From assembly GCA_011051925.1 (NCBI GenBank), contig DRKE01000369.1, positions 1 to 34,980 of the forward strand: 34,980 bases of DNA. The letters run 5' to 3'. Positions 436 to 28,697 of this stretch are shown here, piece by piece. Within the stretch, counting starts at the first letter, position 1. Each line of letters opens with the position of its first letter. A program made the position numbers and the translations under genes. The DNA comes from Deltaproteobacteria bacterium (lineage in GTDB: Bacteria; Myxococcota_A; UBA9160; UBA4427). The notes under the pieces are model-generated. The model did no database searches, was not told the DNA's origin, and worked only from the letters and a program-made list of their open reading frames with translations.

Positions 436-728
436 GCCCGCCCCTTCCCTTCGAATCGAGCGGATCATGACGCCTTCGCTCGAAACGGGTCACGCCTTGC
501 CGAGGCGGATTCCCCTTCTGCCGGAGCGGCACCCCGGAAGGCCGGATTGAGCCGCTCGGCATCGGCTGGGGCATGGATCTCCGCTCTGCCCTCCCTTCTC
601 TCGATCGGGGGATCGAGTGAAACACCGACGATCCCGAGGACCAGCGCTGGACCCGGTCGGCGGAATCCGGGCGGCTCATGCGTTCCGCCGGTCTTGACGA
701 TCCAGCCACCTGGCACGGGGAGGTGGAC

Positions 729-2864
729 TTGAGGCTGTTGTTGGTCGAGGACGATTCGAGCACGCGTCGGATGCTCGAAGGCCTCTTTGTGGGCCAGGGC
801 TACGAAGTCACGGCCTGCCCGAATGGCGAAGCGGCCCTGGTTCGCCACGCCGAGGATCCTTTTCCCTTCATCGCGCTCGACCTCTCCCTGCCCGGCATGA
901 GCGGGCTCGAGGTCTGCAGGCTGATTCGTGCGCGCCGCGACGGGGATCGCGCCTATATTCTCGTCATCACGTCGAGTACGGCGCCGGAGCGTCTCCAGGA
1001 GACACTCGCCGCCGGAGCGAACGACTATCTCGTCAAGCCGGTCAGCCTCGACCTCCTGCATGTCCGCCTGGCCGTCGCGAATCGGCATATCCATGAAGTC
1101 GAGCGGCGTTTCACGCTGGAAGAGCAGAACACGGCGACACGATCCGAGATCAGCGACATCATCCGCTCGATTCCGGACATGCTTCTCGTTCTCGATCGAA
1201 GCGGACGGATCCTCAGGACGAACCAGAGGGTGACGGAGATCCTGGGCTACGAGCAGGACGAGCTGGTCGGCGGCTCGGCGAACCGGATCTTCGGTCCGGC
1301 CTTTGCGGAATGTTTCGCGTCGGAATCTCCGAAATGGGAGAGTCCGTTCCACAATCTCGATATCGTCCTGACGGCTCGTGACGGTCGCCAGATTTCCGTT
1401 CTCGTTTCCGGCGCGCCTCTCCGCGCGTCGACCGAAGGTTCCGGAGGTGGAATCGTCTGCATCGCCAAGGACATGAGCGAACGGAATCGTGCCGAGGAAC
1501 GCATCCGGACCCTGGCCTTCTATGATGGCCTGACCGGTCTCCCGAATCGACATCTCATGCAGGAGCGCGTTCGCGCCGCGATGGCCTCGGCGAGGAAACA
1601 CGGGCGATCGCTCGCACTGCTCTTCCTCGACCTCGATCAGTTCAAACACGTCAACGACACCCTCGGACATCAGGTGGGCGATCGGCTGCTTCGCGACGTG
1701 TCCTCCCGTCTGATCGAGAGCGTCCGGCTGACCGACACGGTCGGTCGCAACGGCGCTACGGCCCAATCGGGCACGGTATCGCGGTTCGGGGGCGACGAGT
1801 TCACGATCCTGCTCACCGATATCGACGACGCGAATGGCGCGAGCCTGGTGGCCAACCGGATCCTGTCGGCCCTGGCAGAGCCCTTCGAGGTCGACGGGCG
1901 TGAGCTCTACTCCGGAGCGAGCATCGGCATCGCCATGTTCCCAGGAGATGGCAACGACGCCGAATCCCTCCTCCAAAGCGCCGATACGGCCATGTACGAC
2001 GCCAAGAGCCAGGGACGAAGTGGTTTCCGGTTCTTCACCCAGCCGATGAACGAAGCCGCCTCGAAGCGGCTCTCGATCGAGAACCGGCTGCGACGCGCCC
2101 TCGAGCGCGACGAGTTCGCGCTCCACTTCCAGCCGCTCCAGGCTTCGCGCACGGGCGCGCTCACCGGTGCCGAAGTACTGCTGCGCTGGCATCCAACGGG
2201 CGGAAAGCCGATCTCACCGGCCGACTTCATTCCCGTGGCCGAGGAAACCGGTCTGATCGTCGCGATCGGCGAATGGGTCCTCCGCGAAGCCTGCCGGCAG
2301 GCGGCGCGCTGGAATCGCTCCGGTCACCCACCGATCCGGATCTCCGTCAACCTTTCGACACGACAGCTTCGCGACGAGGCACTCTGCGAGACGGTTTTCG
2401 ATTGTCTGCGGGAGGGCGACCTCGACCCGTCACAGCTCGAATTGGAGATCACGGAAACGGCCGTCATGCAGGAATACGAAGCCTCCATCTCGGCGCTGCG
2501 CCGACTCGCCGAAGCGGGAATCGGCCTGTGTCTCGACGATTTCGGGACTGGATACTCATCGCTGGCGTATATCCGCCGCTTCCCGATCGAACGGATCAAG
2601 ATCGATCAATCCTTCGTATCGACGATCACGGAATGCCGGGATGACGCGATCTTCTCGGCCGCGATCATCGCCATGGCTCATACCCTCGGGCTCGACGTGG
2701 TCGGTGAAGGGGTCGAGACGACCGAACAGGCCGAGCTCCTCACCGCGCAGGGATGCGACGAACTCCAGGGTTTCCTCTTCAGCCGGCCCTGCCCCGCGGC
2801 TGGATTCGAACGTCTCCTGACCGGCAGCGGGGATCCGAAACCCGACGAAGAGGGATCCGACTGA
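729..2864 (+). CDS. Response-regulator diguanylate cyclase/phosphodiesterase (REC-PAS-GGDEF-EAL)
   Basis: REC motifs (LLVEDD, ALDLSLPGMSG, DYLVKP), a PAS domain, DGLTGLPNR, FKHVNDTLGH, RFGGDEF, AEVLLRW, LELEITE, DDFGTGYSS and ELQGFLFSRP. The ORF opens at 678; the likely start is TTG 729 (or GTG 723) after GGGGAGG. Confidence 0.95.
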   Translation: MRLLLVEDDSSTRRMLEGLFVGQGYEVTACPNGEAALVRHAEDPFPFIALDLSLPGMSGLEVCRLIRARRDGDRAYILVITSSTAPERLQETLAAGANDYLVKPVSLDLLHVRLAVANRHIHEVERRFTLEEQNTATRSEISDIIRSIPDMLLVLDRSGRILRTNQRVTEILGYEQDELVGGSANRIFGPAFAECFASESPKWESPFHNLDIVLTARDGRQISVLVSGAPLRASTEGSGGGIVCIAKDMSERNRAEERIRTLAFYDGLTGLPNRHLMQERVRAAMASARKHGRSLALLFLDLDQFKHVNDTLGHQVGDRLLRDVSSRLIESVRLTDTVGRNGATAQSGTVSRFGGDEFTILLTDIDDANGASLVANRILSALAEPFEVDGRELYSGASIGIAMFPGDGNDAESLLQSADTAMYDAKSQGRSGFRFFTQPMNEAASKRLSIENRLRRALERDEFALHFQPLQASRTGALTGAEVLLRWHPTGGKPISPADFIPVAEETGLIVAIGEWVLREACRQAARWNRSGHPPIRISVNLSTRQLRDEALCETVFDCLREGDLDPSQLELEITETAVMQEYEASISALRRLAEAGIGLCLDDFGTGYSSLAYIRRFPIERIKIDQSFVSTITECRDDAIFSAAIIAMAHTLGLDVVGEGVETTEQAELLTAQGCDELQGFLFSRPCPAAGFERLLTGSGDPKPDEEGSD

Positions 2865-16782: not shown

Positions 16783-17913
16783 ATGAATACCCGCCTGGCT
16801 CGCGATCTCGGTCTCGAATTCCCGATCTTCGCCTTCACCCATTGCCGGGACGTCGCGGCCGCCGTCTCGAAAGCCGGGGGAATGGGCGTCTTCGGCGTCG
16901 CCGCCCATTCGGCGGAAGGGCTTCGCGCCGAACTCGAGTGGATCGAAAAGGAGGTCGGAGACAAGCCCTATGGCGTCGACCTCCTCCTCCCCACGCGATT
17001 CGTCGGCAGCGACAAGAAGGGCGGCCTGAATGACGCCGAGCTCGACGCGAAGATTCCCGAGACGCATCGACGATTCGTGAAGAACCTGCTCGATGAGTTC
17101 GAGGTTCCGCCGCTTCCGCCCGACGTCGATACTTCGGGAACCCTGGGTGTCGGCTACGAACGCCAGAAGGACGTGATCGAACTCCTCTTCCAGCATGATA
17201 TCAGCCTGATCGCGAGCGCCCTCGGTCCACCCCCGGCCTGGATGATCGACATGAGTCGGGACAAAGGGGTCAAGGTCGCGGCGCTCGCCGGGACGGTCGA
17301 GCACGCGAAACGACACGTCGAGGCCGGTGTCGACATCGTGGTCGCCCAGGGCTACGAAGCCGGCGGTCATACGGGCCAGATCGCGACGATGGTGCTGGTT
17401 CCCGAGGTCGTCGATGCGGTCGATCCGATTCCCGTCCTGGCGGCAGGCGGCATCGGGAGTGGCCGACAGATCACCGCAGCCCTCGCCTTGGGCGCCCAGG
17501 GCGTCTGGCTGGGCTCGCTCTGGCTGACGACCGAAGAGGCCGAAACCCACCCGGTCGTGAAGGAGAAATTCCTGAAGGCCTCGTCGAGCGACACGATCCG
17601 CAGTCGCTCGCTCACGGGAAAGCCCGCGCGGCAGCTCCGTAGTGCCTGGACCGACGCCTGGGAGGATCCGTCGAATCCCGATCCCCTTCCCATGCCCCTC
17701 CAACCCCGTCTGGTCCGCGAAGCCCAGGCCCGCATCTCGCGTACGGCGCATAAGTCGAAGGGCGCCGCCCAGCTGAGCAACTACTTCGTGGGGCAGATCG
17801 TTGGATCGATGAACCACACGAAATCCGTACGCACGGTGATGGAGGAGCTCGCGGTCGGGTATGCCGACACCATGGAGCGCCTCGACGAGTGGGCCCGGGG
17901 CGAAGAGGCCTGA
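16783..17913 (+). CDS. Nitronate monooxygenase / FabK-like FMN oxidoreductase
   Basis: FPIFAFTHCRDVAAAVSKAGGMG, PYGVDLL, VAQGYEAGGHTG, VLAAGGIGSG and ALGAQGVWLGS. GGAGG RBS. Confidence 0.92.
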   Translation: MNTRLARDLGLEFPIFAFTHCRDVAAAVSKAGGMGVFGVAAHSAEGLRAELEWIEKEVGDKPYGVDLLLPTRFVGSDKKGGLNDAELDAKIPETHRRFVKNLLDEFEVPPLPPDVDTSGTLGVGYERQKDVIELLFQHDISLIASALGPPPAWMIDMSRDKGVKVAALAGTVEHAKRHVEAGVDIVVAQGYEAGGHTGQIATMVLVPEVVDAVDPIPVLAAGGIGSGRQITAALALGAQGVWLGSLWLTTEEAETHPVVKEKFLKASSSDTIRSRSLTGKPARQLRSAWTDAWEDPSNPDPLPMPLQPRLVREAQARISRTAHKSKGAAQLSNYFVGQIVGSMNHTKSVRTVMEELAVGYADTMERLDEWARGEEA

Positions 17914-18149
17914 ACCGGATCGGTGCGTACCGTTCCGGCGCTGTTCCGGAATGAAAGACCGCGTTTCGATCTGGAAGCCGCGCCCACCGATGCACGCCGA
18001 CGGGCGGCCGTTCCCAGCGACCAGGGCGAGAGAGCGCGATGCGGCAAAGGGCCCGTGCAGGCACGATCGAACGCGCCGAGACTTCCGGATCAGGCCGCTG
18101 GCAGCGCCCTCGGGCGGGATCCCATGGGACCGTGATCGGCTTCGCCCCC

Positions 18150-18166
18150 TTGGCATCGGTCTTGCT
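18150..18166 (+). promoter_or_regulatory. Sigma-54 (RpoN) -24/-12 promoter upstream of maf
   Basis: TTGGCAT-CGGTC-TTGCT, with GG(18152-18153)-N10-GC(18164-18165), matching TGGCAC-N5-TTGCW. It lies about 70 bp before the start codon. Confidence 0.75.
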
Positions 18167-18237
18167 CCTTCCCTTCCGACCGATCCCCGGGCCGCGGCCC
18201 TGGCGGGCCGTTCGGGATCATCGGTCGGGGAGGAAAC

Positions 18238-20226
18238 TTGGGCTCACGAGCCGTCTTCGAAAGAAATCTCGCCGCGATCCGCAAGCGGAGCCCGCAGCTC
18301 GCGGACGCCCTGGCGAAGACGGATGCCGCGGGGATCGAGGAAGTCGAAGGACCACGCGGCGCCGTCGTCCTGCGCGAACGGGGCGTGCTTCTCGGATCCG
18401 CCTACGATCCGAAGCGGGAGGCGGAACAGATCGCCGAGACCATGGCTTCGGAACCCGCCGACATCATGGTCGCGATCGGATTCGGCCTGGGCGACCAGTT
18501 CCCGCACTATTGCGAGCAGAACCCGGCGACCGTGATCGTCTTCGAGCCCTCGGTGGCGCGGCTCCGAGCAGCACTCCATCGCTTCTGCTTGACGAATCTC
18601 TATGCGACGAATCGGGATTTCTACATCACGACGGATCTCGAACACTTCTCCCGCCTCCTCGATCATCGCTATTTCCCCGGCCTGCGCATCCGGGTCTTCC
18701 CGCATCCCGCCGTGCTCCGACTCGACCCCGAGGCCGTCGGGCGGGCGGTCGAACGGACCCGTCGCGTGAAGGACGCCGCCGACACGGGAAGGATCACGAC
18801 GATCGAACGAATGATGCCCTGGGCACGCCTGGTCGCGGGAAATGGCCGGCGGATCGCTTCCTCCGCGAGCCTTCGCGCGCTGGTGGGTCCCTTCGAAGGC
18901 AAGCCCGCCGTCATCGTCGCCGCCGGACCTTCCCTCGACAAGCAACTCCCCCTCCTGAAGGAGCGGGAAGACCACGTTCTCATCATCGCCATCGGCCAGA
19001 CCGTGAAGGCCCTCGCCGCCGCAGGGATCACGCCGCATCTCGTACATGTCCTCGAAAGCCGGAACGTCTCCCATCAGTTGACGGACGGGGGCGATTCGCG
19101 GGAGCTGAACGTCGTGCTCTCCCCGGATTGCCATCCAGCCATCTACGACGTCCCGGTTCGCGGTTCCTTCGTCGCGACACCGAGCGTCAATCCGATGGGA
19201 GCCTGGATCGAGACGGTTCGCGGAGACCCCTGCCTCACGATCGGCGGGGGTACGGTCGCCCTGGGTGCCGTTGCCGTCGCACAGGCCCTCGGGTCGGATC
19301 CGGTCATGTTGATCGGCCAGGATCTCGCGTTCACCGAAGGGCGTGCCTACGCGAAGAATTCGGCCTACGACTTCGTCGGCGTCGAGCTTTCGGAAGACGG
19401 AGAGTGTTCCTTCACGAACGGGAAGCGGAAGGTCGCCCTGCTCGGCGACGAAGACGTCGACCGGGTTCGCGATCGGTTCTCCCGATCCGACGTGGTCTGG
19501 GTCGACGGCTGGCACGAAGGCGAGCGGGTTCCGACCTGGCGCGCCTACGCCTCGTTCATCGAGCAGTATCGCGACGCGGGACTCTTCCTGGCCCAGTCGG
19601 GAATCCGACTGGTGAACTGCACCGAAGGGGGCGCGCGCATCCCCGGAATCGAGCACCTCGCTTTTCGAGAAGTCCTGGACGCGCTTCCGAGCGACTCCCT
19701 GGAGGCTTTCGCGACGATCGATCGCGCCTTCCGCGAGGCACCGCGACACGACCTCTCCGATTTCGCGGACGCGATCCGGAAGGCGCGCCGATCCCTCGAG
19801 CGGATCGAGCAGGAGTCCAGGAAGGCCCTCCGCTTCGCGAAGCGAAACGGGTCGAGGCTTCTCCGGGGGAAGGACGACCAACAGACCATCGACGTGCTCC
19901 GTCGGCTGGCTCGCCATGAGAAGAAGCTCCGAACGCAACTGGATCGGATGCCCTGGCTCGACGCGCTCGTCCAGCCGGAGATCTACAGCGCGATGGCCGC
20001 ATCCCGGAGGACCGAGCGCCAGGACCCCGGCCTCGAGGAACTTCTCGAGGAGTCACTCTTCCTCTTCGAAGCCGTCTGCCATGGGGTCGTACGCGCGCGA
20101 TCCTGGTTCGATCACTTCGAGGCTTCCTTCGACGAGGGAGCGGGCAACGGGGCCGGCCCGGATCGGCGAGAGGGAAAACCGGTCCGGCGGACCGATTCCC
20201 CGGATCTCGCGGCCGTCGCGCCCTGA
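18238..20226 (+). CDS. maf: Motility associated factor (Maf) family glycosyltransferase (DUF115/MptE-like core)
   Basis: FERNLAAI, S.YDP..EAE, GFGLG, VIVFEP, core KPAVIVAAGPSLDKQLPLLK, GITPHLV, GGTVA, MLIGQDLAF and NCTEGGARIPG, with a helical C-terminus. TTG start with GGGGAGGA RBS. Confidence 0.88.
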   Translation: MGSRAVFERNLAAIRKRSPQLADALAKTDAAGIEEVEGPRGAVVLRERGVLLGSAYDPKREAEQIAETMASEPADIMVAIGFGLGDQFPHYCEQNPATVIVFEPSVARLRAALHRFCLTNLYATNRDFYITTDLEHFSRLLDHRYFPGLRIRVFPHPAVLRLDPEAVGRAVERTRRVKDAADTGRITTIERMMPWARLVAGNGRRIASSASLRALVGPFEGKPAVIVAAGPSLDKQLPLLKEREDHVLIIAIGQTVKALAAAGITPHLVHVLESRNVSHQLTDGGDSRELNVVLSPDCHPAIYDVPVRGSFVATPSVNPMGAWIETVRGDPCLTIGGGTVALGAVAVAQALGSDPVMLIGQDLAFTEGRAYAKNSAYDFVGVELSEDGECSFTNGKRKVALLGDEDVDRVRDRFSRSDVVWVDGWHEGERVPTWRAYASFIEQYRDAGLFLAQSGIRLVNCTEGGARIPGIEHLAFREVLDALPSDSLEAFATIDRAFREAPRHDLSDFADAIRKARRSLERIEQESRKALRFAKRNGSRLLRGKDDQQTIDVLRRLARHEKKLRTQLDRMPWLDALVQPEIYSAMAASRRTERQDPGLEELLEESLFLFEAVCHGVVRARSWFDHFEASFDEGAGNGAGPDRREGKPVRRTDSPDLAAVAP

Positions 20227-20258
20227 CGATACGCCCGTGAGACCCGATCAGATCCCGA

Positions 20259-22052
20259 TCATGCGTTCCTGATCCCCGCGATCCGGTCGGCGATTCCCTT
20301 CGCATCGAGACCGTAGGCCGCCTCGAGTTCGGCGTTGCTTCCCGCTTCGATGAAGCTCGCTGGAAGACCGATCTGGACGAGTTCCCGGTCGTTCTCCCCG
20401 GCAGAGAAAAGCAGGGAAGCGACCGCCGATCCGACCCCTCCGTCGAGAACGGCTTCTTCGACCGTGACGACGCGAGCATGGTCGCGGATCTTCTCGAGGA
20501 GCGCCGCTTCGGGAAGGGGCTTCAGTCTCCGCAGGTTGACGACTCGTGCCTCGATTCCCCTGTTCGCGAGAAGCTCCGATGCCTCGAGACAGGCCCGGAC
20601 CTTGTTGCCGACGGCGACGATCGCCACGTCCGGACCGTCTCGAACGATCTCGGGCTCGAAGAGTGTCCCGCCGCGGGCATCTTCGGCGGCGGGATCGATC
20701 GAATCCGCTGGTCCGTAGGGCATCATGACCAGGACGGGCCCCTCGATCGTTTCGAGAATCTCCCGGACCATCGCCCGCGCCTCATGGCGGTCCTTCGGAT
20801 AGAAGATCTCCAGATTCGGGATCGGGCGCAGATAGGCGATGTCGTAGATGCCATGGTGGGTGGGATTGTCGTAGCCGCTGAAGCCGCTCCGATACGAGAG
20901 CATCAGACAGGGACGATTCGCGAAAGCCACGTCGTGGATGATCTGATCGAAAGCACGCTGCAGGAAGGTCGACTGATAGGCGATGATCGGCAGCTTCCCG
21001 GCCAGGGAGAACCCCACGCACATGGAGAGCGCGTGTTGTTCTTCCATCCCGGGATCGAAACAGCGTTCCGGGTACTTCTCGAAGACTCCAGCCAGGCCTG
21101 TCGCGTAGAGCGTCGAGGGCGTGATGCAGACCGCATCGCGATTCGCCGCCATGAAGCCGTCGATCACTTCCGCGACCACCTCGGGATAGCCGGGAGCGGG
21201 CGTCGAGGCATCCCGCGGCGTGCCGGACACCGGATCGAAGGGAAAGGAGAAATGCAACCGGAAGGGATGATCGTCGGCCGGGGCCCAGCCCTTTCCCTTG
21301 ACCGTGCGCGCATGCACGAGGCTGAGCCCGTCTGCCGCCTTGGCTGCCTCGAGGGCTTCCATCAGGTCCCCGATCGAATGCCCATCGACGCGCCCGAGAT
21401 AATTCGCGCCGAGACTCCCGAAATAATCCCTTGCCCGCCCCGCCTCGCCCTGCAACATCTCGTGAAAGGCACCGAATCCGGGACTGATCGCATAGCCATT
21501 GTCGTTCAGGAGAACGATCAGGTTCGTCTTTTCGACGATCGCATGGTTGAAGGCTTCGAGGGAGATCCCCTCGACGAAGGCGCCATCGCCCACCGTCGCG
21601 ACGACATGGGAGGGATCATGGTCGAGCTTCCGTGCCAGCGCCAATCCCAGCCCCACGGAAATGGCGGTACCCGCATGAGAAGACTCGATCAGGTCGTGAG
21701 GGCTTTCGGTCGGCGTCAGGAAACGATTCATTCCGCCATGGCGGTTCAGTGACGGAAAGAGGCCAGCTCGTCCGGTGAGCAACTTGTGCGTGTAGCCCTG
21801 ATGACCGGTATCGAAGAGGAGTGCGTCCCGGGGCGTCTCGAAACAGGCGTGGAGAGCGATCGTCAATTCGACCGTCCCGAGGTTGGCTCCGATATGGCCT
21901 CCCGTCTTCGAGACATGGTCGAGCAGGAAACGCCGGACCTGCGTCGCCAGATCTTCCAGCTCGGACAGTCCGCATCGACGCAGCGGCGATGGATCCGCGA
22001 GCCGTGTCAATTCGATCGGGCCCGCCTCGTGGATCGGGAGTTGTGCACTCAA
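20259..22052 (-). CDS. Divergent DXS-like ThDP-dependent carboligase
   Basis: GGHIGANLGTVELTIALH, FDTGHQGYTHKLLTGR, ThDP motif GDGA...LLNDN, VDGH, TVKGKG, EQHA, STFLQRAFDQ, and a transketolase C-terminal domain. TTG start with GAGGGG RBS. Confidence 0.9.
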   Translation of the reverse strand: MSAQLPIHEAGPIELTRLADPSPLRRCGLSELEDLATQVRRFLLDHVSKTGGHIGANLGTVELTIALHACFETPRDALLFDTGHQGYTHKLLTGRAGLFPSLNRHGGMNRFLTPTESPHDLIESSHAGTAISVGLGLALARKLDHDPSHVVATVGDGAFVEGISLEAFNHAIVEKTNLIVLLNDNGYAISPGFGAFHEMLQGEAGRARDYFGSLGANYLGRVDGHSIGDLMEALEAAKAADGLSLVHARTVKGKGWAPADDHPFRLHFSFPFDPVSGTPRDASTPAPGYPEVVAEVIDGFMAANRDAVCITPSTLYATGLAGVFEKYPERCFDPGMEEQHALSMCVGFSLAGKLPIIAYQSTFLQRAFDQIIHDVAFANRPCLMLSYRSGFSGYDNPTHHGIYDIAYLRPIPNLEIFYPKDRHEARAMVREILETIEGPVLVMMPYGPADSIDPAAEDARGGTLFEPEIVRDGPDVAIVAVGNKVRACLEASELLANRGIEARVVNLRRLKPLPEAALLEKIRDHARVVTVEEAVLDGGVGSAVASLLFSAGENDRELVQIGLPASFIEAGSNAELEAAYGLDAKGIADRIAGIRNA

Positions 22053-22276
22053 ATCGGATTCCCCTCGGCCCGCGTCGGATCGGGGCCCTGACCGGTCATC
22101 GGGAAAGCCCTTGTTTTTCTTTACATTGCGCCGGGAAGGCGCGGCTCGGTTGCCGGACCCGGCCGAGCCGGCATGACACCCGGCACGAACTCCGGAGAAC
22201 CCCCCAGAAAATCCGTCTCCCGATCGGAAAGACCGAGCGGATCCGCAATTTTGGATCTCCTCGAATCACGCCATCT

Positions 22277-22284
22277 GCCGATAG
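22277..22284 (+). promoter_or_regulatory. Possible sigma-28 (FliA) -10 element upstream of the ATP-grasp operon
   Basis: GCCGATAG is a 7/8 match to GCCGATAA, 75 bp before ATG 22360. The -35 match is poor. Confidence 0.35.
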
Positions 22285-22359
22285 GCAGGGGGAACGCAGG
22301 GAGAGAAGCATGACGACACGCAGGGGCAACCGACCTCTTCTTCCGCGAAGCCCGGAAGC

Positions 22360-23694
22360 ATGACCGGAAACGCGCGAACGCTCGTCGTTCTGGGCGCGAG
22401 TACCGATCAGCTCTTCCTGATCGAGACGGCGCAGGCACTCGGCCTGCGTGTCCTCGCCGTGGACCGGGATGCCGACGCCCCCGGGTTTGCCGTGGCCGAG
22501 GAATCGGCGCTCATCAGCACCCGGGACGTCGCCGGGATCTGCGCTCATCTCGATCGACTCGAGAAGGACGAAGGCGCGGTCTTCGCGGGGGTCACGACGA
22601 TGGGAAGCGACATTCCCGAGATCGTCGCCGCGATCGCCGGGCATCTGGGGACGCCCTCCATTCCCCTCGAAGCGGCTCGATTGACCGTCGACAAGTTCGC
22701 GATGAAGGTGCGTCTTCGCGAATGCTCGATTCCGATCCCCTGGTTCCGGGAAGTTCCCGGCGTGGAAGACCTGCTCGAGGTGATCGCGGATCGAGGACTT
22801 CCCCTCGTCATCAAACCGATCGACCGCTCGGGGTCCCGGGGCGTCTTCTTCCTCCGCCCGGGCTGCGACCCCACGGATCTCTTCCAGAAGGCGAAGGCCT
22901 TTTCGTTCTCGGGTCGCGTCCAGGTCGAGGAATATCTTCCCGGGCCCCAGATCAGCACGGAAACGATCCTCTACGGTGGGCGGGCGGTCACCCCGGGTTT
23001 CGCCGATCGGAACTACGACACCTTCGAGCGGTTCCTTCCCCAGATCATGGAAAACGGAGGATGGGTCCCTTCCCTCCTCTCGGCCGAGGAACGGAAGCAG
23101 GTGGAAGAGCTGGTCGTCTCGGCTTCCCTCGCATTGGGCATCTCGGAGGGCGTCACGAAGGGGGACGTCGTGATGACACCCGAGGGCCCCAGGATCATCG
23201 AGATTGCCGCCCGCCTGAGCGGCGGTGACTTCTGCGCGGGACTGGTCCCTCTCGGATCGGGCGTCAACTACGTCCGGACCGCGATCCAGATCGCGATCGG
23301 CGAGACGCCGGATCTCGACGCCCTCGCACCCCGTTTCGAGAGAGCCGTCGCGAATCGTTATTTCTTTCCCGAACCGGGCCGTCTCGTCCGGATCGAGGGC
23401 GTCGAAGCCATTCGCGCGAGGCCCTGGCTCCACAAACTCGAATTCTGGTACCGACCCGGGGAGATCGTTCCCGAAAGCCTCAGCCATGCCCATCGGTTCG
23501 GGGTCTTCGTCGTGAGCGCGCCGGATCGCGCGACGGCCCAGGCAAGGGTCGACGAGGTCTACGACACGATCCGGATCGTGACGAGGCCCGAGAAGGCAGC
23601 CTCGAGGACCCGTCCGGAATCCTCGTTCCCGCCGGACAGGCCATCGGCCGTCGCGACCCGCCCCGGGGCGATCGCGTCCGGGACTCGAGGATGA
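22360..23694 (+). CDS. ATP-grasp ligase 1
   Basis: VVLGASTDQ, DKFAMK, PLVIKPIDRSGSRGV, VEEYLPGPQIS, KGD and IIEIAARLSGG, plus an LAL_C2-like C-terminus (FFPEPG...HRFG). Confidence 0.9.
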   Translation: MTGNARTLVVLGASTDQLFLIETAQALGLRVLAVDRDADAPGFAVAEESALISTRDVAGICAHLDRLEKDEGAVFAGVTTMGSDIPEIVAAIAGHLGTPSIPLEAARLTVDKFAMKVRLRECSIPIPWFREVPGVEDLLEVIADRGLPLVIKPIDRSGSRGVFFLRPGCDPTDLFQKAKAFSFSGRVQVEEYLPGPQISTETILYGGRAVTPGFADRNYDTFERFLPQIMENGGWVPSLLSAEERKQVEELVVSASLALGISEGVTKGDVVMTPEGPRIIEIAARLSGGDFCAGLVPLGSGVNYVRTAIQIAIGETPDLDALAPRFERAVANRYFFPEPGRLVRIEGVEAIRARPWLHKLEFWYRPGEIVPESLSHAHRFGVFVVSAPDRATAQARVDEVYDTIRIVTRPEKAASRTRPESSFPPDRPSAVATRPGAIASGTRG

Positions 23695-23695
23695 A

Positions 23696-24916
23696 ATGGT
23701 GACGGTACCCGTCCGCTCGGGAGCCCTCGAATGGATCCACGTCGATTGCCCGCTCTGCGGGGCCGACGATGCCGAACCCGTCTATGAACGTGACCACGAG
23801 ACCGGTTCGACCCTCGGTCGACTCCGCAAGATCGACGTCCTCTGCCGCCGATGCGGATTCATGTACACCGACCCGCGACCGTCAGCCGCGGACATGCGTC
23901 GCTATTATGCGGAGGCCAGCGGCGCTTCGGGAAGCGTCTTCCACGCGATGGAGCCGGGCTCTCGGCTGCGCGGATTGATCGAGGAGCGTGCGGCCTTCAT
24001 GCAACCGCTCGTCGCTTCCCACTTCGGATCGGGACCCGGCGCGATCCTCGACATCGGATGCGCGACCGGCGACCTGCTCGAACACCTCGATCTTCCGGAA
24101 TGGCACAAGGCCGGGCTCGAGCCTTCGGCCAGAGCCTCCGCGACAGCCCGGACGCGCGGCCTCGAAGTCGAATGCGGGGATCTCGAGTCGACGTCGCTTC
24201 CCGACCGGAGCTTCGACGTCATCACATGCATCAGCGTGCTCGAACACGTCCACGATCTCCGGGCCTCGGTCGGACGGATCCGGCAGAGCCTCCGACCCGG
24301 AGGCCTGGCCTTCGTCGAAGTCCCCGACTCGACGCGGCCCGTGGCGCAGATCGCGGAGTTCTTTTCCTTCGAGCATCTCTCCCATTTCACGCGGGGAACG
24401 CTGGTCCGCTGTCTCGCGGAGGCCGGACTCGAAGCGATCGCCTTCGACGAACAGGTCGGCCTTCCCAACCTGCGCGTATGCGCACGGCGAAGCGAGCAGA
24501 TTCCCGCAAAGGCCGCCTTCGGAACGGACGATGCCGAAGCGCTTCGCCGGGCCATCGCTCGCTATCGTCGGCAACGCGAGGCCTTCGCGGAGACGCTCAC
24601 CCGCCGGCTGAACGATCGGGTCGACCGCTGGGCGACCCGGGATGCCCGCGTGGCGGTCTACGGCGCGGGCATGCACACGCGTTTCCTGATGGAGGTCGTC
24701 GATCTCGGCCGATCGGTCACATGTCTTCTCGACAGCGATCCGCGCAAGGCGGGAAGTTCGTTTCTCGGCTGGCGGGTCTTCGGACCGGACGACATCCCGC
24801 GACTCGGGCTGGACGCGATCCTGATTTCGACCAATGCCTTCGAGGAGGAGGTCTACTCGGCCATCGCCCCCACGGCGCGCGCACACGCGATCGAGGTCGT
24901 GCGGTGTTACGGATGA
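23696..24916 (+). CDS. SAM-dependent methyltransferase with NDP-sugar C-methyltransferase-like architecture
   Basis: N-terminal CPLC...CRRC Zn motif, ILDIGCATG, SVLEHV, FVEVP, EHLSHF, and C-terminal VAVYGAG...LDSDPRKAG domain. Confidence 0.85.
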   Translation: MVTVPVRSGALEWIHVDCPLCGADDAEPVYERDHETGSTLGRLRKIDVLCRRCGFMYTDPRPSAADMRRYYAEASGASGSVFHAMEPGSRLRGLIEERAAFMQPLVASHFGSGPGAILDIGCATGDLLEHLDLPEWHKAGLEPSARASATARTRGLEVECGDLESTSLPDRSFDVITCISVLEHVHDLRASVGRIRQSLRPGGLAFVEVPDSTRPVAQIAEFFSFEHLSHFTRGTLVRCLAEAGLEAIAFDEQVGLPNLRVCARRSEQIPAKAAFGTDDAEALRRAIARYRRQREAFAETLTRRLNDRVDRWATRDARVAVYGAGMHTRFLMEVVDLGRSVTCLLDSDPRKAGSSFLGWRVFGPDDIPRLGLDAILISTNAFEEEVYSAIAPTARAHAIEVVRCYG

Positions 24917-26028
24917 ACCGGGGCGGAACCCCGCGAAGGAACGACCCACGGAAGAGCCTGCTCGTCTACGGAGCCGGACGGAACCAGCTGCCCCTTCTCG
25001 CAGCCGGAAGGCGCAGGGGATGGCGCATCATCGCGATCGACCGTGACGCCGGAGCGCCCGGCCGCTCCCTCGCCGACCGTTTCCTGTGTCTCAGCCTGCG
25101 CGATCACGAAGCGATCGTGAAGGAACTGGCGTCCGAGAAGATCGTCGGGGTGGTCGCGCGAATCACCGATCACGTCGGCCTCGAGTCCGCCTGCCGGATC
25201 GCCCGTGACCAGGGTCTCGCCTCCGTCTGTCCCGGTCTCTTCGCCGCGGCGACCCACAAGACGGCCCTGGCCCGCCAGTGCCGACGCGCTGGCCTGCGCA
25301 CCCCCGAACGCCGTTCAGCGAGTGATCCGGACCTCTTCGAGAAGGGCCCCATCCTGTTGCGACCCGACGTGACGATCCGGGGGAAGGCCGGCATCCGCCG
25401 GGTCCGGTCCGTGGAAGCCCTCGAACTCGCGCTTCCCGAGACCCGTTCGCGATCGGGAAACGGAGAGGTCGACCTCGCGGATTGGATCGACGGCACGGAC
25501 GTCTCGATTCTCGTCCAGCTCGATCGGGGCCACGGACGGCGACTCGCCTTGTGGGACGAGTGGGTCGCACTCGATGCCGAGGGGATGATCCGGGGCGTCG
25601 GCTGCGGCATGCCCTCGGTCTTCGAGGAGGACCCGACCTCGATCGATCGGGTCATCGACCGATTGGCCCGCGCCTTTCCCGAAAGCCGTGGCCTGATCGC
25701 CCTCTCCCTTCGCATCGACGCGGCGAACCGGCCCTGGATGATCGAGATCCATCTGGGAATCGGCGGCGACGGCATCGCGGACCGCCTCCTGCCCGCGGCA
25801 CTGCCGGGTTTCGATGCGTTCGAGCTCCTCGCCCGGACGCAGGCCGGCGAACGGGTCGACCCGCCGCCTGCTCGCGCGCGACCTCGCGCATTGCTGCGGG
25901 ATGGGGAGGGCGGAGCATGGCGGATCGTCGAAGCCCGGGATGCCGCGACGCTGCGCGCCCGATGTCTCGCCTCGCTGCCCCGGGATTGGGAGGCGCCCCG
26001 GGGCCTGCTTCCGGGGACGAAGCCATGA
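24913..26028 (+). CDS. ATP-grasp protein 2 (degenerate motifs)
   Basis: LLVYGAGRNQ, THKTAL, LLRPDVTIRGKAGI, DWIDG and MIEIH. ATGA overlap with the upstream gene; C-terminal part of track ORF 23851..26028. Confidence 0.78.
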   Translation: MNRGGTPRRNDPRKSLLVYGAGRNQLPLLAAGRRRGWRIIAIDRDAGAPGRSLADRFLCLSLRDHEAIVKELASEKIVGVVARITDHVGLESACRIARDQGLASVCPGLFAAATHKTALARQCRRAGLRTPERRSASDPDLFEKGPILLRPDVTIRGKAGIRRVRSVEALELALPETRSRSGNGEVDLADWIDGTDVSILVQLDRGHGRRLALWDEWVALDAEGMIRGVGCGMPSVFEEDPTSIDRVIDRLARAFPESRGLIALSLRIDAANRPWMIEIHLGIGGDGIADRLLPAALPGFDAFELLARTQAGERVDPPPARARPRALLRDGEGGAWRIVEARDAATLRARCLASLPRDWEAPRGLLPGTKP

Positions 26029-27218
26029 GACGCGGGGTCGTCCAGCTGGGCGCGGGTCCCGTCCAACGCGGGCTGCTCGAACGCTTCCGCGAAAACGGCC
26101 TGGTCCCGATCCTCGTCGACCGGAACGAGCGACCCGCCGGCCGCGTTCCCGGAAGCCTCCACGTTCGCGCGCCGATCGACGAGCCGCAGACGATCGTCCG
26201 GGCTCTTCAGGAAGCCCGGTCGGATCGGCGGCTGGCCGGAGTCGGGATCGGCGCCGTTCTCACGAGCACCGACCTCGGTGTCGCGAGCGTCCCGGTCGTC
26301 GCGAGAGCCCTCGACCTGCCGCATGCCTCGATCGATTCGATCGCCACGATGGACGACAAGGCCCTTGCGCGACGGGTGCTCTCCGAAGCGGGAGTCCGCG
26401 TACCGGAGGGATGGCTCGGCCGACGCCCCTGCGACATTCCCGCCCTCGAAACCGACCGCGAGTGGATCGTGAAACCCGTCGACTCTTCGGGCAGCCGCGG
26501 CGTCAGGCGCATCCGGGGCCCGGTCGCCCTGGCCCATGCGATCGAGAACGCCCTCGCCTTCAGCGACCGCTTCCTCGTCGAGGAATGCATCGACGGGATC
26601 CATCTCGACATCAACGGTCTGGTCATCGACGGCCGGTTCGAGCTGGTTTCGATCGGCCGGCGGCATTTCACGAGGCCCCCCGCCTGCGTGCCGATCCATG
26701 GCGGAATCGCCGGTGGCTGGAGCGCATCGCTCGCCGAAGAGGTCGTCCGGCTGATGCAGGCCTCCGTTGCGGCCTTCGACTATCGCCATGGCCCCGTGAA
26801 GGCCGATCTCATCCAGGACGAGCGCGGTCTCGTCGTCCTCGAACTGGCCGCCCGTTTCCATGGGGACGTCTTCTCCCATCACGTCGCCGAAGCAGCCGGA
26901 CGGCCTCCCGCCGCCCTCGTCTGGCTGGCGCGCCTGGGACTCTGCCCGAAGCCGGTGGAAGGACCCCGCCACGGGGGCTGGTTCGGCGTCTTCGCCGAGA
27001 AGGCCGGCACGATCCGGGCGATCGAGGGACTCGACGAGGTCCGCTCGCTTCCCGGCTTCCGGACCTGGATCCCCCGGCTCGGTCCGGGCGACCCGGTCGG
27101 CTCGCCCGAGGACAACCGAGCCCTCGTGGGCTTCGGGCTGATCGGTTTCGACCGGACGGAAGATCTCTGGGCGGAAGCCGATCGGCGGCGGCAGATGATC
27201 CGGGTGGCGCTCGACTGA
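26025..27218 (+). CDS. ATP-grasp ligase 3
   Basis: QLGAGPVQ, DDKALAR, WIVKPVDSSGSRGV, LVEECIDG, GPVKAD and LELAARFHG, with an LAL_C2-like tail. ATGA overlap with the upstream gene. Confidence 0.88.
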   Translation: MRRGVVQLGAGPVQRGLLERFRENGLVPILVDRNERPAGRVPGSLHVRAPIDEPQTIVRALQEARSDRRLAGVGIGAVLTSTDLGVASVPVVARALDLPHASIDSIATMDDKALARRVLSEAGVRVPEGWLGRRPCDIPALETDREWIVKPVDSSGSRGVRRIRGPVALAHAIENALAFSDRFLVEECIDGIHLDINGLVIDGRFELVSIGRRHFTRPPACVPIHGGIAGGWSASLAEEVVRLMQASVAAFDYRHGPVKADLIQDERGLVVLELAARFHGDVFSHHVAEAAGRPPAALVWLARLGLCPKPVEGPRHGGWFGVFAEKAGTIRAIEGLDEVRSLPGFRTWIPRLGPGDPVGSPEDNRALVGFGLIGFDRTEDLWAEADRRRQMIRVALD

Positions 27219-27243
27219 TCGTCGAAGGGAAACGGTTCGGACG

Positions 27244-27286
27244 GACGGGTCCCGACCTGGACCGGCCAGGAGAATCCCGACCCGTC
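27244..27286. terminator. Nested stem-loop between convergent genes (possible bidirectional terminator)
   Basis: GACGGGTC...GACCCGTC outer arms with an inner CCTGG-N5-CCAGG stem. No U-tract. Confidence 0.35.
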
Positions 27287-27327
27287 ATCCGCGTCGAGCC
27301 AGGACGGGGCATCCGCCGGATCCCGCC

Positions 27328-28086
27328 CTATCCCATGAACTGTCCACCGTTCACGTTCAGGACCTGTCCCGTCACGAAGGCCGCGTCATCCGAGGCGAGA
27401 TAGACCGCCGCGGCGGCCACGTCGCCCACCTCGCCGATCCGGCCCAACGGAAGGCCTGCGGCGATCTCGCGCTCTTCGTCTTCGAGCAGGTGTTGGATCA
27501 TCTCCGTCCGGATGAAACCCGGCGAGATCGCGTTCACGCGAACGCCCATCGGCCCCAGGATCCGTGCACAGGATTTCGTGAGCGCGAGGATCGCGGCCTT
27601 CGAGGCCGAATAGTGCGGTGCTTTCGGTCCGCCGAACTGACCGCCGACGGAGGCGATGTTGATCACGACCCCCGAGCCCGCGGCTTCGAAGCGACGGGCG
27701 GCGGCCTGGGTCGCAAAGAACGTGCCCTTGAGATTCGTGTCGAGGGTCCGCTCGTAGCTTGCCTCCGTGATCTCCAGGAAGGGTTCCTGCGCGAGATGAC
27801 CGGCGTTGTTCACCAGGATGTCGAGGCTCCCCAGGCATTCGTCGATCGTTCCGAAGACCTTTTCGAGGCTCGACAGCTTCGTCACGTCGAGTTCGAGACA
27901 GAGCGCGTCGCCGAGCTCCCGGGCGAGCGCACGAGCGCGTTCTTCTTCCCTGCGATAGGTGACGACGACCCGGGCGCCCTCCTCGTGGAAGGCGCGGGCG
28001 ATCTCGGCGCCGATGCCCCGGGCTGAACCCGTGACGAGGGCGACGCGATCCATCAGTCGACGACCGGCTCCCAGACGATCGAGCAC
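27328..28086 (-). CDS. SDR family oxidoreductase (FabG-like)
   Basis: VALVTGSARGIG, ILVNNAG, NIAS, YSASK, VNAISPGFIRT and VTGQVLNVNGG. GTG 28086 follows GGGAGG; alternative start ATG 28053. Confidence 0.93.
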   Translation of the reverse strand: MLDRLGAGRRLMDRVALVTGSARGIGAEIARAFHEEGARVVVTYRREEERARALARELGDALCLELDVTKLSSLEKVFGTIDECLGSLDILVNNAGHLAQEPFLEITEASYERTLDTNLKGTFFATQAAARRFEAAGSGVVINIASVGGQFGGPKAPHYSASKAAILALTKSCARILGPMGVRVNAISPGFIRTEMIQHLLEDEEREIAAGLPLGRIGEVGDVAAAAVYLASDDAAFVTGQVLNVNGGQFMG

Positions 28087-28210
28087 GATTCTTCCTCCCG
28101 GCATGGGACCCCGTCTGCCCCGATCCCGGCATCGGACGCGGACGACACCGCCAATGCCTGATCCGAACGAAGGGCCGCAGCCCGATCGGGCGACGAGCCG
28201 CCCCTCCCGT

Positions 28211-28218
28211 CTATCGGC
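28211..28218 (-). promoter_or_regulatory. Possible sigma-28 (FliA) -10 element upstream of the SDR
   Basis: Minus strand reads TCGG-N15-GCCGATAG, the same octamer as at 22277. Confidence 0.35.
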
Positions 28219-28397
28219 CGATTCCGTGCAAGACCGAGGGATAAGTGCGCGGAAAAAGAGGGCGATCGATCACGAGGGTGTGGCTGCGGAAAGGACCGGA
28301 GAGGGTCTCGGGCGTTCCCCGGAATCGCCCTGGCGTCGTTCCGGCCGGGAAGCCATGCCGACCGACCCATGCCCGACCGACAAGAGGGGGAAGTCGC

Positions 28398-28697
28398 TCA
28401 GCCCGGAACGCCGTTCACGAGGATGGCGAAATGGTTCGAGGTCGCCGCGTGTCGTTTGGGAATCAGCGCCTGGTAGTCCCCCGATTCGTAGAGCGCCTTC
28501 GCCTCCTCCTTCGATCCGAAGCGCAGGACGATCGTCTGATGCCCCGCACTTTCGCCTTCGAGCCGCTCGGTCGCAGGATCGAAGGCGATGAGCTGGCAGG
28601 CGTCGCCGATCTTCATGACCGAACCGGCCGAAGCGGAATATTCCGCGTAGCCTTCGGGGTCCTCGACGTTGTAGTTGACGATCAGATAGGCGGGCAT
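28398..28697 (-). CDS. DUF1330 family protein
   Basis: MPAYLIVNYNVEDPEGYAEY, LEG, IVLRFGSKEEAKALYESGDYQ and R...ILVNG. Confidence 0.88.
   Translation of the reverse strand: MPAYLIVNYNVEDPEGYAEYSASAGSVMKIGDACQLIAFDPATERLEGESAGHQTIVLRFGSKEEAKALYESGDYQALIPKRHAATSNHFAILVNGVPG

Follow-up and report, generated by a model that had tools for sequence, protein, structure and literature searches.

Synthesis of yersiniose A relies on YerE and YerF, which act in deoxysugar tailoring: YerE, an acetolactate-synthase-type flavoprotein working on a CDP-4-keto sugar, transfers a two-carbon (C2) unit from pyruvate in a thiamine diphosphate (ThDP)-dependent reaction, and a reductase follows. Another ThDP enzyme with a reductase partner is encoded by the sfmABCDE genes of Shewanella oneidensis MR-1, whose products are a 290-residue NeuB-like protein, a 581-residue thiamine pyrophosphate enzyme annotated ilvB (SfmB, SO_3262), a 255-residue FabG-like protein, a 395-residue methyltransferase, and a 412-residue ATP-grasp protein (Bubendorfer et al, 2013; PMC3765264). 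Here, we analyzed a 34,980-nucleotide stretch of deltaproteobacterial DNA (contig DRKE01000369.1 of assembly GCA_011051925.1, positions 1 to 34,980; hereafter the window) with a minus-strand gene whose product resembles 1-deoxy-D-xylulose-5-phosphate (DXP) synthase (DXS). Paralogy, a separate clade, invariant residue swaps, gene linkage, and an island context were observed directly. As judged from sequence, the DXS-like protein appears to be a neofunctionalized DXS-family enzyme of an uncharacterized clade that is linked to the tailoring of flagellin nonulosonic acids and wrongly named by a curated equivalog model, and its gene probably encodes a carboligase that does not make DXP and serves flagellin-glycan tailoring.

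According to the genetic study of S. oneidensis, each of sfmA to sfmE is required for the flagellin glycan, and flagellin mass shifts in every deletion; loss of sfmB or sfmC removes the whole glycan, and deletion of sfmE, the ATP-grasp gene, gives a slightly smaller shift (PMC3765264). The glycan is described there as a 274-Da mono-N-acetyl pseudaminic-acid-like sugar plus a nitrogen-free 236-Da unit (C9H16O7), which is O-methylated and carries one or two further methyls, for a range of 236–264 Da (PMC3765264). A 2023 preprint (10.1101/2023.12.03.569772) confirms the masses, treats SO_3261 as pseI, and remarks on an oversized cytidylyltransferase; its passages on the 236-Da unit give masses only and no structure. 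By arithmetic, C9H16O7 would fit a mono-O-methyl deoxy-octonoyl group (the C2 unit of pyruvate plus hexuronic acid, reduced), a reduced methylated KDO, a 3,9-dideoxy-nononoyl group, or heptose plus C2H4O, none of which was selected. The literature searched, which lay mostly outside subscription journals, yielded no description of a DXS-like or transketolase enzyme in flagellin glycosylation.

The DXS-like clade and its acceptor pocket

The gene under study is the following.

20259..22052, minus strand: DXS-like ThDP enzyme of the Q392/Y478 clade, TTG start, 597 residues, assigned from domains, residue mapping, and tree

A GAGGGG stretch resembling a Shine–Dalgarno sequence lies immediately 5' of the TTG. 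The database gene call (P0002) starts later and gives 561 residues; the 597-residue model is preferred because homologues align from about residue 9–15. The protein has the DXS architecture (Pfam DXP_synthase_N, Transket_pyr, and Transketolase_C). It passes the cut-offs of the NCBIfam dxs equivalog TIGR00204 (505 bits versus 465.95, with the match in two stretches) and of NF003933 (448.2 versus 395), and stays below that of NF008968 (401.2 versus 510). Since the equivalog cut-off is passed, pipelines call the protein DXS. Its best solved relatives are likewise DXS structures, with Protein Data Bank (PDB) matches down to E 1e-112: 7a9h and 8ogh, the top one-stretch matches (E ~1e-112, molecule name doubled), which we take to be engineered DXS with a deleted loop, and the E. 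coli (2o1s) and D. radiodurans (2o1x) enzymes, which match in two stretches. Transketolase equivalog models score below their cut-offs (best NF004559, 180.3 bits versus 488), and the TPP_enzyme_N/M/C architecture of the YerE type is absent, its sole trace being a weak and incomplete hit to TPP_enzyme_C (31.7 bits) beneath the DXS N domain.

The source assembly (4.4 Mb, 552 contigs, ~92% complete) also encodes a canonical DXS, on contig C298, which scores 802.7 bits with TIGR00204 versus 505 for the DXS-like protein; the DXS-like gene is thus not the only dxs-type gene of its genome. The canonical gene begins within the 3' end of a polyprenyl synthetase gene, much as ispA adjoins dxs in E. coli, and a TlyA-like methyltransferase gene lies 3' of it. 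Identity of the DXS-like protein is 35.6% with E. coli Dxs (208/584 aligned positions) and 34.8% with the canonical DXS of its own genome (204/586), and the latter two share 45.9%. Given this canonical dxs, the presence of dxr in the genome as well, and the separate clade (below), the first-pass annotation was right that the gene does not encode the housekeeping enzyme of the methylerythritol phosphate (MEP) pathway. Nine genomes with the DXS-like gene were checked for canonical dxs and dxr. Canonical and DXS-like proteins occur together in six (G000, G001, G002, G003, G153, and G155). In two, a 1.1-Mb Falkowbacteria metagenome-assembled genome (MAG) of the candidate phyla radiation (G151, locus L029) and a Methanobacteriota archaeon MAG (G152, locus L031), the DXS-like protein was found and neither canonical dxs nor dxr was. 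Both carry the DXS-like gene together with short-chain dehydrogenase/reductase (SDR) and ATP-grasp genes, a module that either reached these unexpected hosts by horizontal transfer or stems from contamination during binning.

Residues were compared in an alignment of 87 rows, comprising 36 canonical DXS (including E. coli K-12 dxs, L084, and that of the source genome, L001), 45 DXS-like proteins, and 6 short transketolase-C proteins. All residue numbers are those of E. coli Dxs. As the first-pass annotation had stated, the ThDP and pyruvate machinery is intact: GHQ, GDGA..NDN (aligned with positions 151–181), EQH, and STFLQR are all present. H49, H80, H299, E370, R398, D427, and H431 are found in the window protein and in 44–45 of the 45 clade members, and R420 is retained in canonical and DXS-like proteins alike. 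The three-domain fold family is shared with canonical DXS. The positions at which the two groups differ are the following.

Position 392: canonical DXS (n = 36) Y 36; DXS-like (n = 45) Q 45
Position 478: canonical R 28, K 7, T 1; DXS-like Y 45
Position 99: canonical R 33, K 2, G 1; DXS-like N 44, gap 1 (a partial row)
Position 419: canonical D 36; DXS-like V 27, Y 9, A 5, F 3, M 1
Position 294: canonical D 33; DXS-like H 45
Position 346: canonical M 36; DXS-like T 45
Position 368: canonical I 36; DXS-like M 45

The motif changes proposed earlier for the window protein all hold in this alignment, among them RYPRG (475–479) to MMPYG, that is R478Y; IYSTF to YQSTF (Y392Q); DRAG to YRSG (D419Y with R420 kept); and TPAM to TPST. 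R99N, which the alignment adds, had been overlooked. Three further differences are real and lack diagnostic value: DNPTHHG in place of DGQTHQG is typical of one sub-clade only (A, below); SHAGTA in place of GHSSTS has its HAGT also in the canonical DXS of the same genome (GHAGTS); and the shortened segment after NDN recurs in some proteins with Y392 and R478. The window protein has 79 residues in this segment (positions 183–299), ~36–41 fewer than E. coli Dxs (115) and the canonical DXS of the same genome (120); the segment's length is 77–83 residues in all 45 DXS-like proteins and 115–127 in the 36 canonical ones. A segment of 77–86 residues was also seen in some proteins with the canonical Y392/R478/D419 signature (P0128, P0141, P0144, P0174, P0179, and P0181); the mobile loop can therefore be lost independently of the changes in the pocket.

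The part that Y392, R420, and R478 were said to play in binding glyceraldehyde-3-phosphate (GAP) agrees with a study of the E. coli enzyme that calls them its conserved GAP pocket; according to the same source, the R478A variant has a Km(D-GAP) of 1400 µM, and R99 is important for ligands reaching into the pocket (PMC11019550). R420 alone remains of these three in the DXS-like protein, and another active-site arginine, R99, is gone as well. As the differences are family-wide across the clade, they do not reflect chance drift. The alignment thus points to a protein whose D-GAP pocket is mostly lost and whose ThDP and pyruvate machinery is kept.

A tree of 84 rows (36 canonical, 45 DXS-like, and 3 transketolase-C outgroup proteins) was built with IQ-TREE in quick mode, with three short rows excluded and two over-long open reading frame (ORF) calls trimmed to their last 640 residues. 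All 45 DXS-like proteins fall into one clade apart from canonical DXS (SH-aLRT 100; stem 0.96 substitutions per site). Within it, sub-clade A (25 rows, support 99) contains the window protein, and sub-clade B (20 rows, support 100) contains seven Shewanella-labelled loci, Thalassotalea, and Oceanospirillum. Many phyla are intermixed in both, which indicates horizontal spread. In this sample, the clade is nested in the DXS radiation, with actinobacterial DXS as its sister group (support 97); we do not rely on this position. Members include proteins from Acidobacteriota, Planctomycetota, Pseudomonadota, Bacillota, Nitrospirota, and the two MAGs described above, and cultured carriers include Magnetospirillum aberrantis and Marinibaculum pumilum. 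Among the best 150 matches in a representative library of 1.84 billion proteins, 17 combine Q392 with Y478, 124 combine Y392 with R or K478, and 9 have other combinations; none of these 150 has a mixed Q/R or Y/Y form. In a collection clustered at 90% identity, the best 120 clusters all reach at least 52% identity, have 561–626 residues, and, where the source gives a name, are called DXS.

Gene linkage and the flagellin-glycosylation islands

Gene context was compared in the window region and 44 further loci (L005–L048), in which ORFs of at least 80 residues were clustered and named by NCBIfam and Pfam. The recurrent neighbours are the following.

FabG-like SDR: 44/45 loci, on the strand of the DXS-like gene in 44/44, abutting or overlapping the DXS-like ORF call in 38
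ATP-grasp ligase of the L-amino-acid-ligase (LAL) type: 42/45 loci, often in two or three copies
Enlarged cytidylyltransferase-like protein: 28/45 loci
653-residue protein with a faint GH57-like N-terminus: 28/45 loci
307-residue methyltransferase: 26/45 loci
Short NeuB/PseI-like synthase: 25/45 loci
PseC: 17/45 loci
416-residue methyltransferase: 14/45 loci
Window-type methyltransferase: 13/45 loci
PseB: 10/45 loci
Maf-type proteins: 10/45 loci
Split transketolase: 5/45 loci

At least one of PseB, PseC, the NeuB-like, cytidylyltransferase-like, and 653-residue proteins, or Maf is encoded within 8 kb of the DXS-like gene in 39 of the 45 loci. In L005, which has full flanks, the ATP-grasp, SDR, and DXS-like genes stand alone as a trio amid unrelated genes and therefore look like one unit. 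The fuller combination of window-type methyltransferase, three ATP-grasp genes, SDR, and DXS-like gene recurs in L016, L022, L025, L027, L029, L030, L032, L034, L108, and L109. Four Acidobacteriota loci (L014, L017, L018, and L019) have the DXS-like gene, then a split transketolase (N and C halves), then the SDR, and hence two ThDP enzymes per cluster.

The window thus holds the partner set of an sfm-type module, a ThDP enzyme with a FabG-like SDR and LAL-type ATP-grasp ligases, and the setting is also present. A Maf gene lies in the window itself, and other contigs of the genome carry flagellins, PseB, PseC, and the 5' part of the 653-residue protein gene (C99; the last at C99:11971-13902), the 3' part of that gene with the 307-residue methyltransferase and the NeuB-like synthase (C424; C424:25-411), and more flagellins (C418 and C288).

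Among 148 genomes of the genus Shewanella, 13 have the DXS-like gene (E<=1e-120) and 27 the short NeuB-like gene. Twelve island loci were examined. Six encode the DXS-like enzyme (L104–L109); two (L137 and L140) encode an acetolactate-synthase-type enzyme (TPP_enzyme_N/M/C; best PDB match E. coli acetohydroxyacid synthase I, E 6.6e-98); and three (L138, L139, and L142) encode a split transketolase of ~278 residues (Transketolase_N) and ~324 residues (Transket_pyr/Transketolase_C). The remaining island, L141 in genome G028, has shortened ORFs matching the transketolase N half, the C half, and ATP-grasp (203, 215, and 223 residues), which suggests a module in decay. All island loci have homologous SDR and ATP-grasp genes and at least one methyltransferase gene beside the ThDP enzyme. 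The NeuB-like gene lies on one side, the 653-residue protein, cytidylyltransferase, PseC, and PseB genes on the other, and Maf, in several loci with FlgT, adjoins them. Two island proteins, of ~650 residues (L137:13089-15005) and of ~570 residues (L137:15002-16726; the first ~130 residues a cytidylyltransferase), correspond to the 653-residue and enlarged cytidylyltransferase-like proteins of 28 of the 45 loci and may stand in for PseG, PseH, and PseF.

Within one genus, one slot of otherwise homologous flagellin-glycosylation islands is therefore occupied by three ThDP enzyme architectures. That one architecture replaces another at a constant position argues strongly for a need for ThDP carboligase-type chemistry there. 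L137 has the published sfm gene order and product lengths, and the possibility that S. oneidensis SfmB is itself DXS-like was rejected, as the L137 enzyme is of the acetolactate-synthase type and does not match the DXS-like cluster. SfmB shares with the window protein its association with a FabG-like SDR, a methyltransferase, an ATP-grasp protein, and a short NeuB-like synthase near Maf, PseB, and PseC; by way of L137, it belongs to a different ThDP class and is analogous to the window protein, not a homologue at the family level. For the same reason, the published sfm genetics concern an analogue of the window enzyme. SfmB's requirement for the glycan was demonstrated genetically (PMC3765264), in contrast to the DXS-like enzyme, known here from its sequence.

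The split transketolases belong to the superfamily of the DXS-like enzyme and fill the same slot beside SDR, methyltransferase, and ATP-grasp genes. They differ in consisting of two polypeptides, and would be expected to deliver a glycolaldehyde-derived rather than an acetyl-derived unit, so that the product would have one more oxygen and be heavier by about 16 Da (CH2OH in place of CH3). Their presence in L138, L139, and L142, their co-occurrence with the DXS-like gene in the four Acidobacteriota loci, and the synthesis of 2-ulosonic acids in these islands by NeuB-like synthases raise the alternative that the DXS-like enzyme is not a pyruvate carboligase, and instead acts as a decarboxylase on a bulkier 2-oxo acid, for example a 3-deoxy-2-ulosonic acid, or transfers ketol units from a ketose or hydroxypyruvate like a transketolase. 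We regard this as most unlikely: H49, H299, and H431, which we take to hold the lactyl-ThDP intermediate in DXS, are invariant; the scores with transketolase models fall far short of the thresholds (180 versus 488 bits); and two ThDP enzymes in one locus likely have different jobs.

Neighbouring genes and promoter candidates in the window

Around the DXS-like gene, the window contains a Maf gene on the plus strand, then the DXS-like gene on the minus strand, an overlapping plus-strand operon of four genes, and the SDR gene on the minus strand.

18238..20226, plus strand: Maf-type (MptE-like/DUF115, PseD-like) putative flagellin nonulosonic-acid glycosyltransferase (Pfam MptE-like, E 5.8e-31)
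22096..22123, minus strand: sigma-28 (FliA)-like promoter candidate, TAAAG-N15-CCCGATGA, ending 44 nt 5' of the TTG start
22360..23694, plus strand: ATP-grasp ligase 1, LAL type (Pfam LAL_C2 and ATP-grasp_3), divergent from the DXS-like gene
23696..24916, plus strand: S-adenosylmethionine (SAM) methyltransferase of 406 residues, related to the SfmD type (Pfam methyltransferase domains)
24913..26028, plus strand: divergent third ATP-grasp-like gene (tblastn to the ATP-grasp cluster, E 1e-11; faint PylC-like N-terminal domain)
26025..27218, plus strand: ATP-grasp ligase 2, LAL type (Pfam LAL_C2 and ATP-grasp_3), its ATG overlapping the preceding stop
27328..28104, minus strand: FabG-like SDR, conserved partner of the DXS-like enzyme (Pfam adh_short_C2)

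The Maf-type gene is convergent with the DXS-like gene and is the sole MptE-like match in the assembly; its product contains an NCBIfam FlagModPseD domain and is 67% identical to the Maf protein of L006. The window SDR is 76% identical to the SDR encoded immediately 3' of the DXS-like gene in that same locus. The best PDB match of ATP-grasp ligase 1 is the L-amino acid ligase BL00235. The ATG of the third ATP-grasp-like gene overlaps the methyltransferase stop, and counterparts of 362–371 residues occur in L108 and L109. Residues ~97–341 of the methyltransferase weakly match nucleoside diphosphate (NDP)-sugar 3-C-methyltransferases (4rv9, 5t64, and TcaB9), and a C-methyltransferase C-terminal domain scores below the Pfam cut-off (20.6 versus 23.5 bits); the protein may methylate at carbon rather than at oxygen. 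A faint zinc-ribbon match was seen at its N-terminus.

The pattern TAAAG-N16-CCGAT, picked post hoc from the promoter candidate itself, has one match in the window versus 0.02 expected, with matches in 2 of 100 shuffles. The FliA consensus given for the S. oneidensis sfm operon is TAAAG-N14-GCCGTTAA (PMC3765264). The sigma-28 -10-like box GCCGATAG was also seen at 22277–22284 (plus strand, ~80 nt 5' of ATP-grasp ligase 1) and at 28211–28218 (minus strand, ~108 nt 5' of the SDR gene). As a -10 box, GCCGATA matches five times in the window versus 3.1 expected, which is not significant. A sigma-70 promoter scan over positions 17800–28400 found no sites, and terminator-like elements were no more numerous than in shuffles (7 versus 5.5). 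Directly 5' of Maf lies a nitronate-monooxygenase/FabK-like gene (16783–17913, plus strand), probably outside the island because none of the other 44 loci showed a homologue. A response-regulator/PAS/GGDEF/EAL protein of cyclic di-GMP turnover is encoded at 678–2864 (plus strand), on the same contig as the flagellin-glycan genes.

A candidate tailoring route and its alternatives

Taken as a whole, the material is best explained, in our moderately confident view, by a pyruvate carboligase with a non-phosphorylated acceptor that takes part in flagellin nonulosonic-acid tailoring. Which donor and what kind of acceptor are used, in what order the steps run, and where the product ends up we infer as follows. 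The DXS-like enzyme would decarboxylate pyruvate to the hydroxyethyl-ThDP enamine, as expected from DXS enzymology, because the histidines, E370, D427, and the cofactor motif are retained. It would then add the C2 unit to the carbonyl of an acceptor that, with R99 and R478 lost and Y392 changed to Q, is presumably no longer a phosphate ester. The new ketone would be reduced to a diol by the FabG-like reductase, whose near-universal coupling fits acyloin-ketone reduction, and the product would perhaps be O-methylated by the methyltransferases. A LAL-type ATP-grasp ligase could next join the resulting hydroxy-acid to the free amine of pseudaminic acid or of its UDP-4-amino precursor, the PseC product, and the neighbouring Maf transferase would place the decorated nonulosonic acid on flagellin. 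The coupling to carboxylate–amine ligases suggests that the product carries or joins a carboxylate. Our preferred guess for the acceptor is an aldehyde bearing a carboxylate, since the remaining R420 could grip that group, the acetolactate-synthase-type substitute natively makes keto-acids, and reductase and ligase are coupled. As a chemical precedent, flagellin of Treponema denticola is described with a 2-methoxy-4,5,6-trihydroxy-hexanoyl nonulosonic acid (PMC13439194). This hydroxy-acid side-chain route is put forward tentatively, at somewhat less than even odds.

Several observations weigh against this explanation or parts of it. Six of the 45 loci (L005, L010, L011, L015, L018, and L019) have no nonulosonic-acid or Maf gene within 8 kb; four are on short contigs, and two have full flanks. 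In the window, the SDR gene lies 5.3 kb from the DXS-like gene, past the opposite-strand ATP-grasp/methyltransferase block, and is not adjacent to it. The S. oneidensis genetic evidence rests on an acetolactate-synthase-type enzyme and not on a DXS-like one, the phenotypes of sfmB and sfmC versus sfmE deletions fit poorly with a side chain that is made first and then ligated, and the 236-Da moiety is too big for a simple C4–C5 hydroxy-acid. Residual DXP synthesis by the DXS-like protein is possible, as two dxs equivalog cut-offs are passed and R420, D427, and H431 are retained. Finally, in the ninth genome checked (G154, a Vampirovibrionales MAG with locus L037), dxr is present and canonical dxs was not found at E<=1e-50; either this MAG is incomplete or the DXS-like enzyme is able to serve the MEP pathway there.

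The last two points, together with the kept cofactor and catalytic residues, would also suit a true second DXP synthase that supplies thiamine, pyridoxal, or extra isoprenoid flux and is linked to flagellar genes by accident. This is very unlikely in our judgement. R478, Y392, and R99 are replaced clade-wide, and loss of the R478 side chain alone already raises the Km for D-GAP to the value cited above; canonical dxs accompanies the gene in six of the nine genomes, and dxr was not found in two carriers. Moreover, linkage to SDR and ATP-grasp genes persists over many phyla, and unrelated ThDP enzyme types occupy the same slot in other islands.

The chief rival to the hydroxy-acid route is C2 branching of a UDP-4-keto sugar by a pair like YerE and YerF, in which a 4-keto-6-deoxy sugar linked to a nucleotide, for instance the product of PseB, would receive an acetyl unit from pyruvate at its keto group, reduction by the SDR would leave a 1-hydroxyethyl branch or a chain extension, and the ATP-grasp ligases would perform independent tailoring. 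YerE and the DXS-like enzyme share the pairing of carboligase and ketoreductase in a sugar-decoration setting; the window enzyme differs in its DXS/transketolase fold, and its acceptor could be something other than a sugar nucleotide. The source genome and many loci encode PseB, the producer of a UDP-4-keto sugar, and the substitute enzyme in L137 and L140 is of the acetolactate-synthase structural class to which YerE belongs. E1-type ThDP enzymes, AviB1/AviB2, also form two-carbon sugar branches. In addition, the island methyltransferase weakly resembles NDP-ketosugar 3-C-methyltransferases over ~240 residues and is similar in total length, and C9H16O7 can be written as a heptose residue plus C2H4O. 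However, in S. oneidensis, the inner sugar corresponds in composition to an ordinary mono-N-acetyl pseudaminic acid without an extra C2 unit (PMC3765264), and the methyltransferase matches remain under the Pfam cut-off. The tight coupling of DXS-like, SDR, and ATP-grasp genes, and the L005 trio with no sugar-nucleotide gene within 8 kb, suggest instead a self-contained route ending in ligation. We therefore consider the sugar-branching scheme unlikely, though less so than the other two alternatives. The first-pass annotation had proposed a carboligase with a different acceptor, conceptually like YerE in branched-sugar synthesis; the sugar-tailoring islands and the acetolactate-synthase-type slot filler speak for it, the chemistry is still something we infer, and a branched sugar is one of two live options for the product. 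Neither the side-chain nor the sugar-branching route cleanly accounts for how the S. oneidensis deletions behave or for how large the 236-Da unit is.

It is about an even bet that the ThDP enzyme is a swappable C2-adding cassette, in which DXS-like, split transketolase, and acetolactate-synthase-like enzymes, whose architectures are unrelated or distantly related, are exchanged beside one set of reductase, ligase, and methyltransferase, each writing a different hydroxy-acyl or branched substituent on pseudaminic acid. The DXS-like version would use pyruvate and a non-phosphorylated, probably carboxylate-bearing aldehyde, and would have spread by horizontal transfer through more than ten phyla under the mistaken name DXS. 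For the side chain of Shewanella-type pseudaminic acid, described by mass and composition in 2013 (PMC3765264), the cassette view offers a testable route, predicting glycan mass differences between species with different ThDP enzymes.

For annotation, the consequence is that the whole DXS-like clade, with the best 120 clusters of the 90%-identity collection and 17 of the best 150 library representatives among its members, passes a curated dxs equivalog cut-off despite its rebuilt substrate pocket, and metabolic reconstructions that count these enzymes as DXS can wrongly infer an MEP pathway, as two carriers without a detected dxr illustrate. For enzymology, the clade supplies a DXS scaffold in which nature has already introduced R99N, Y392Q, and R478Y and trimmed the mobile segment, and from which one can learn how acceptor specificity is set, in a family whose canonical member is an antibiotic target and whose DXS-like branch may offer a new carboligase for synthesis. 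If the cassette reading is true, the DXS-like clade would represent a so far uncharacterized enzyme activity that is systematically named DXS.

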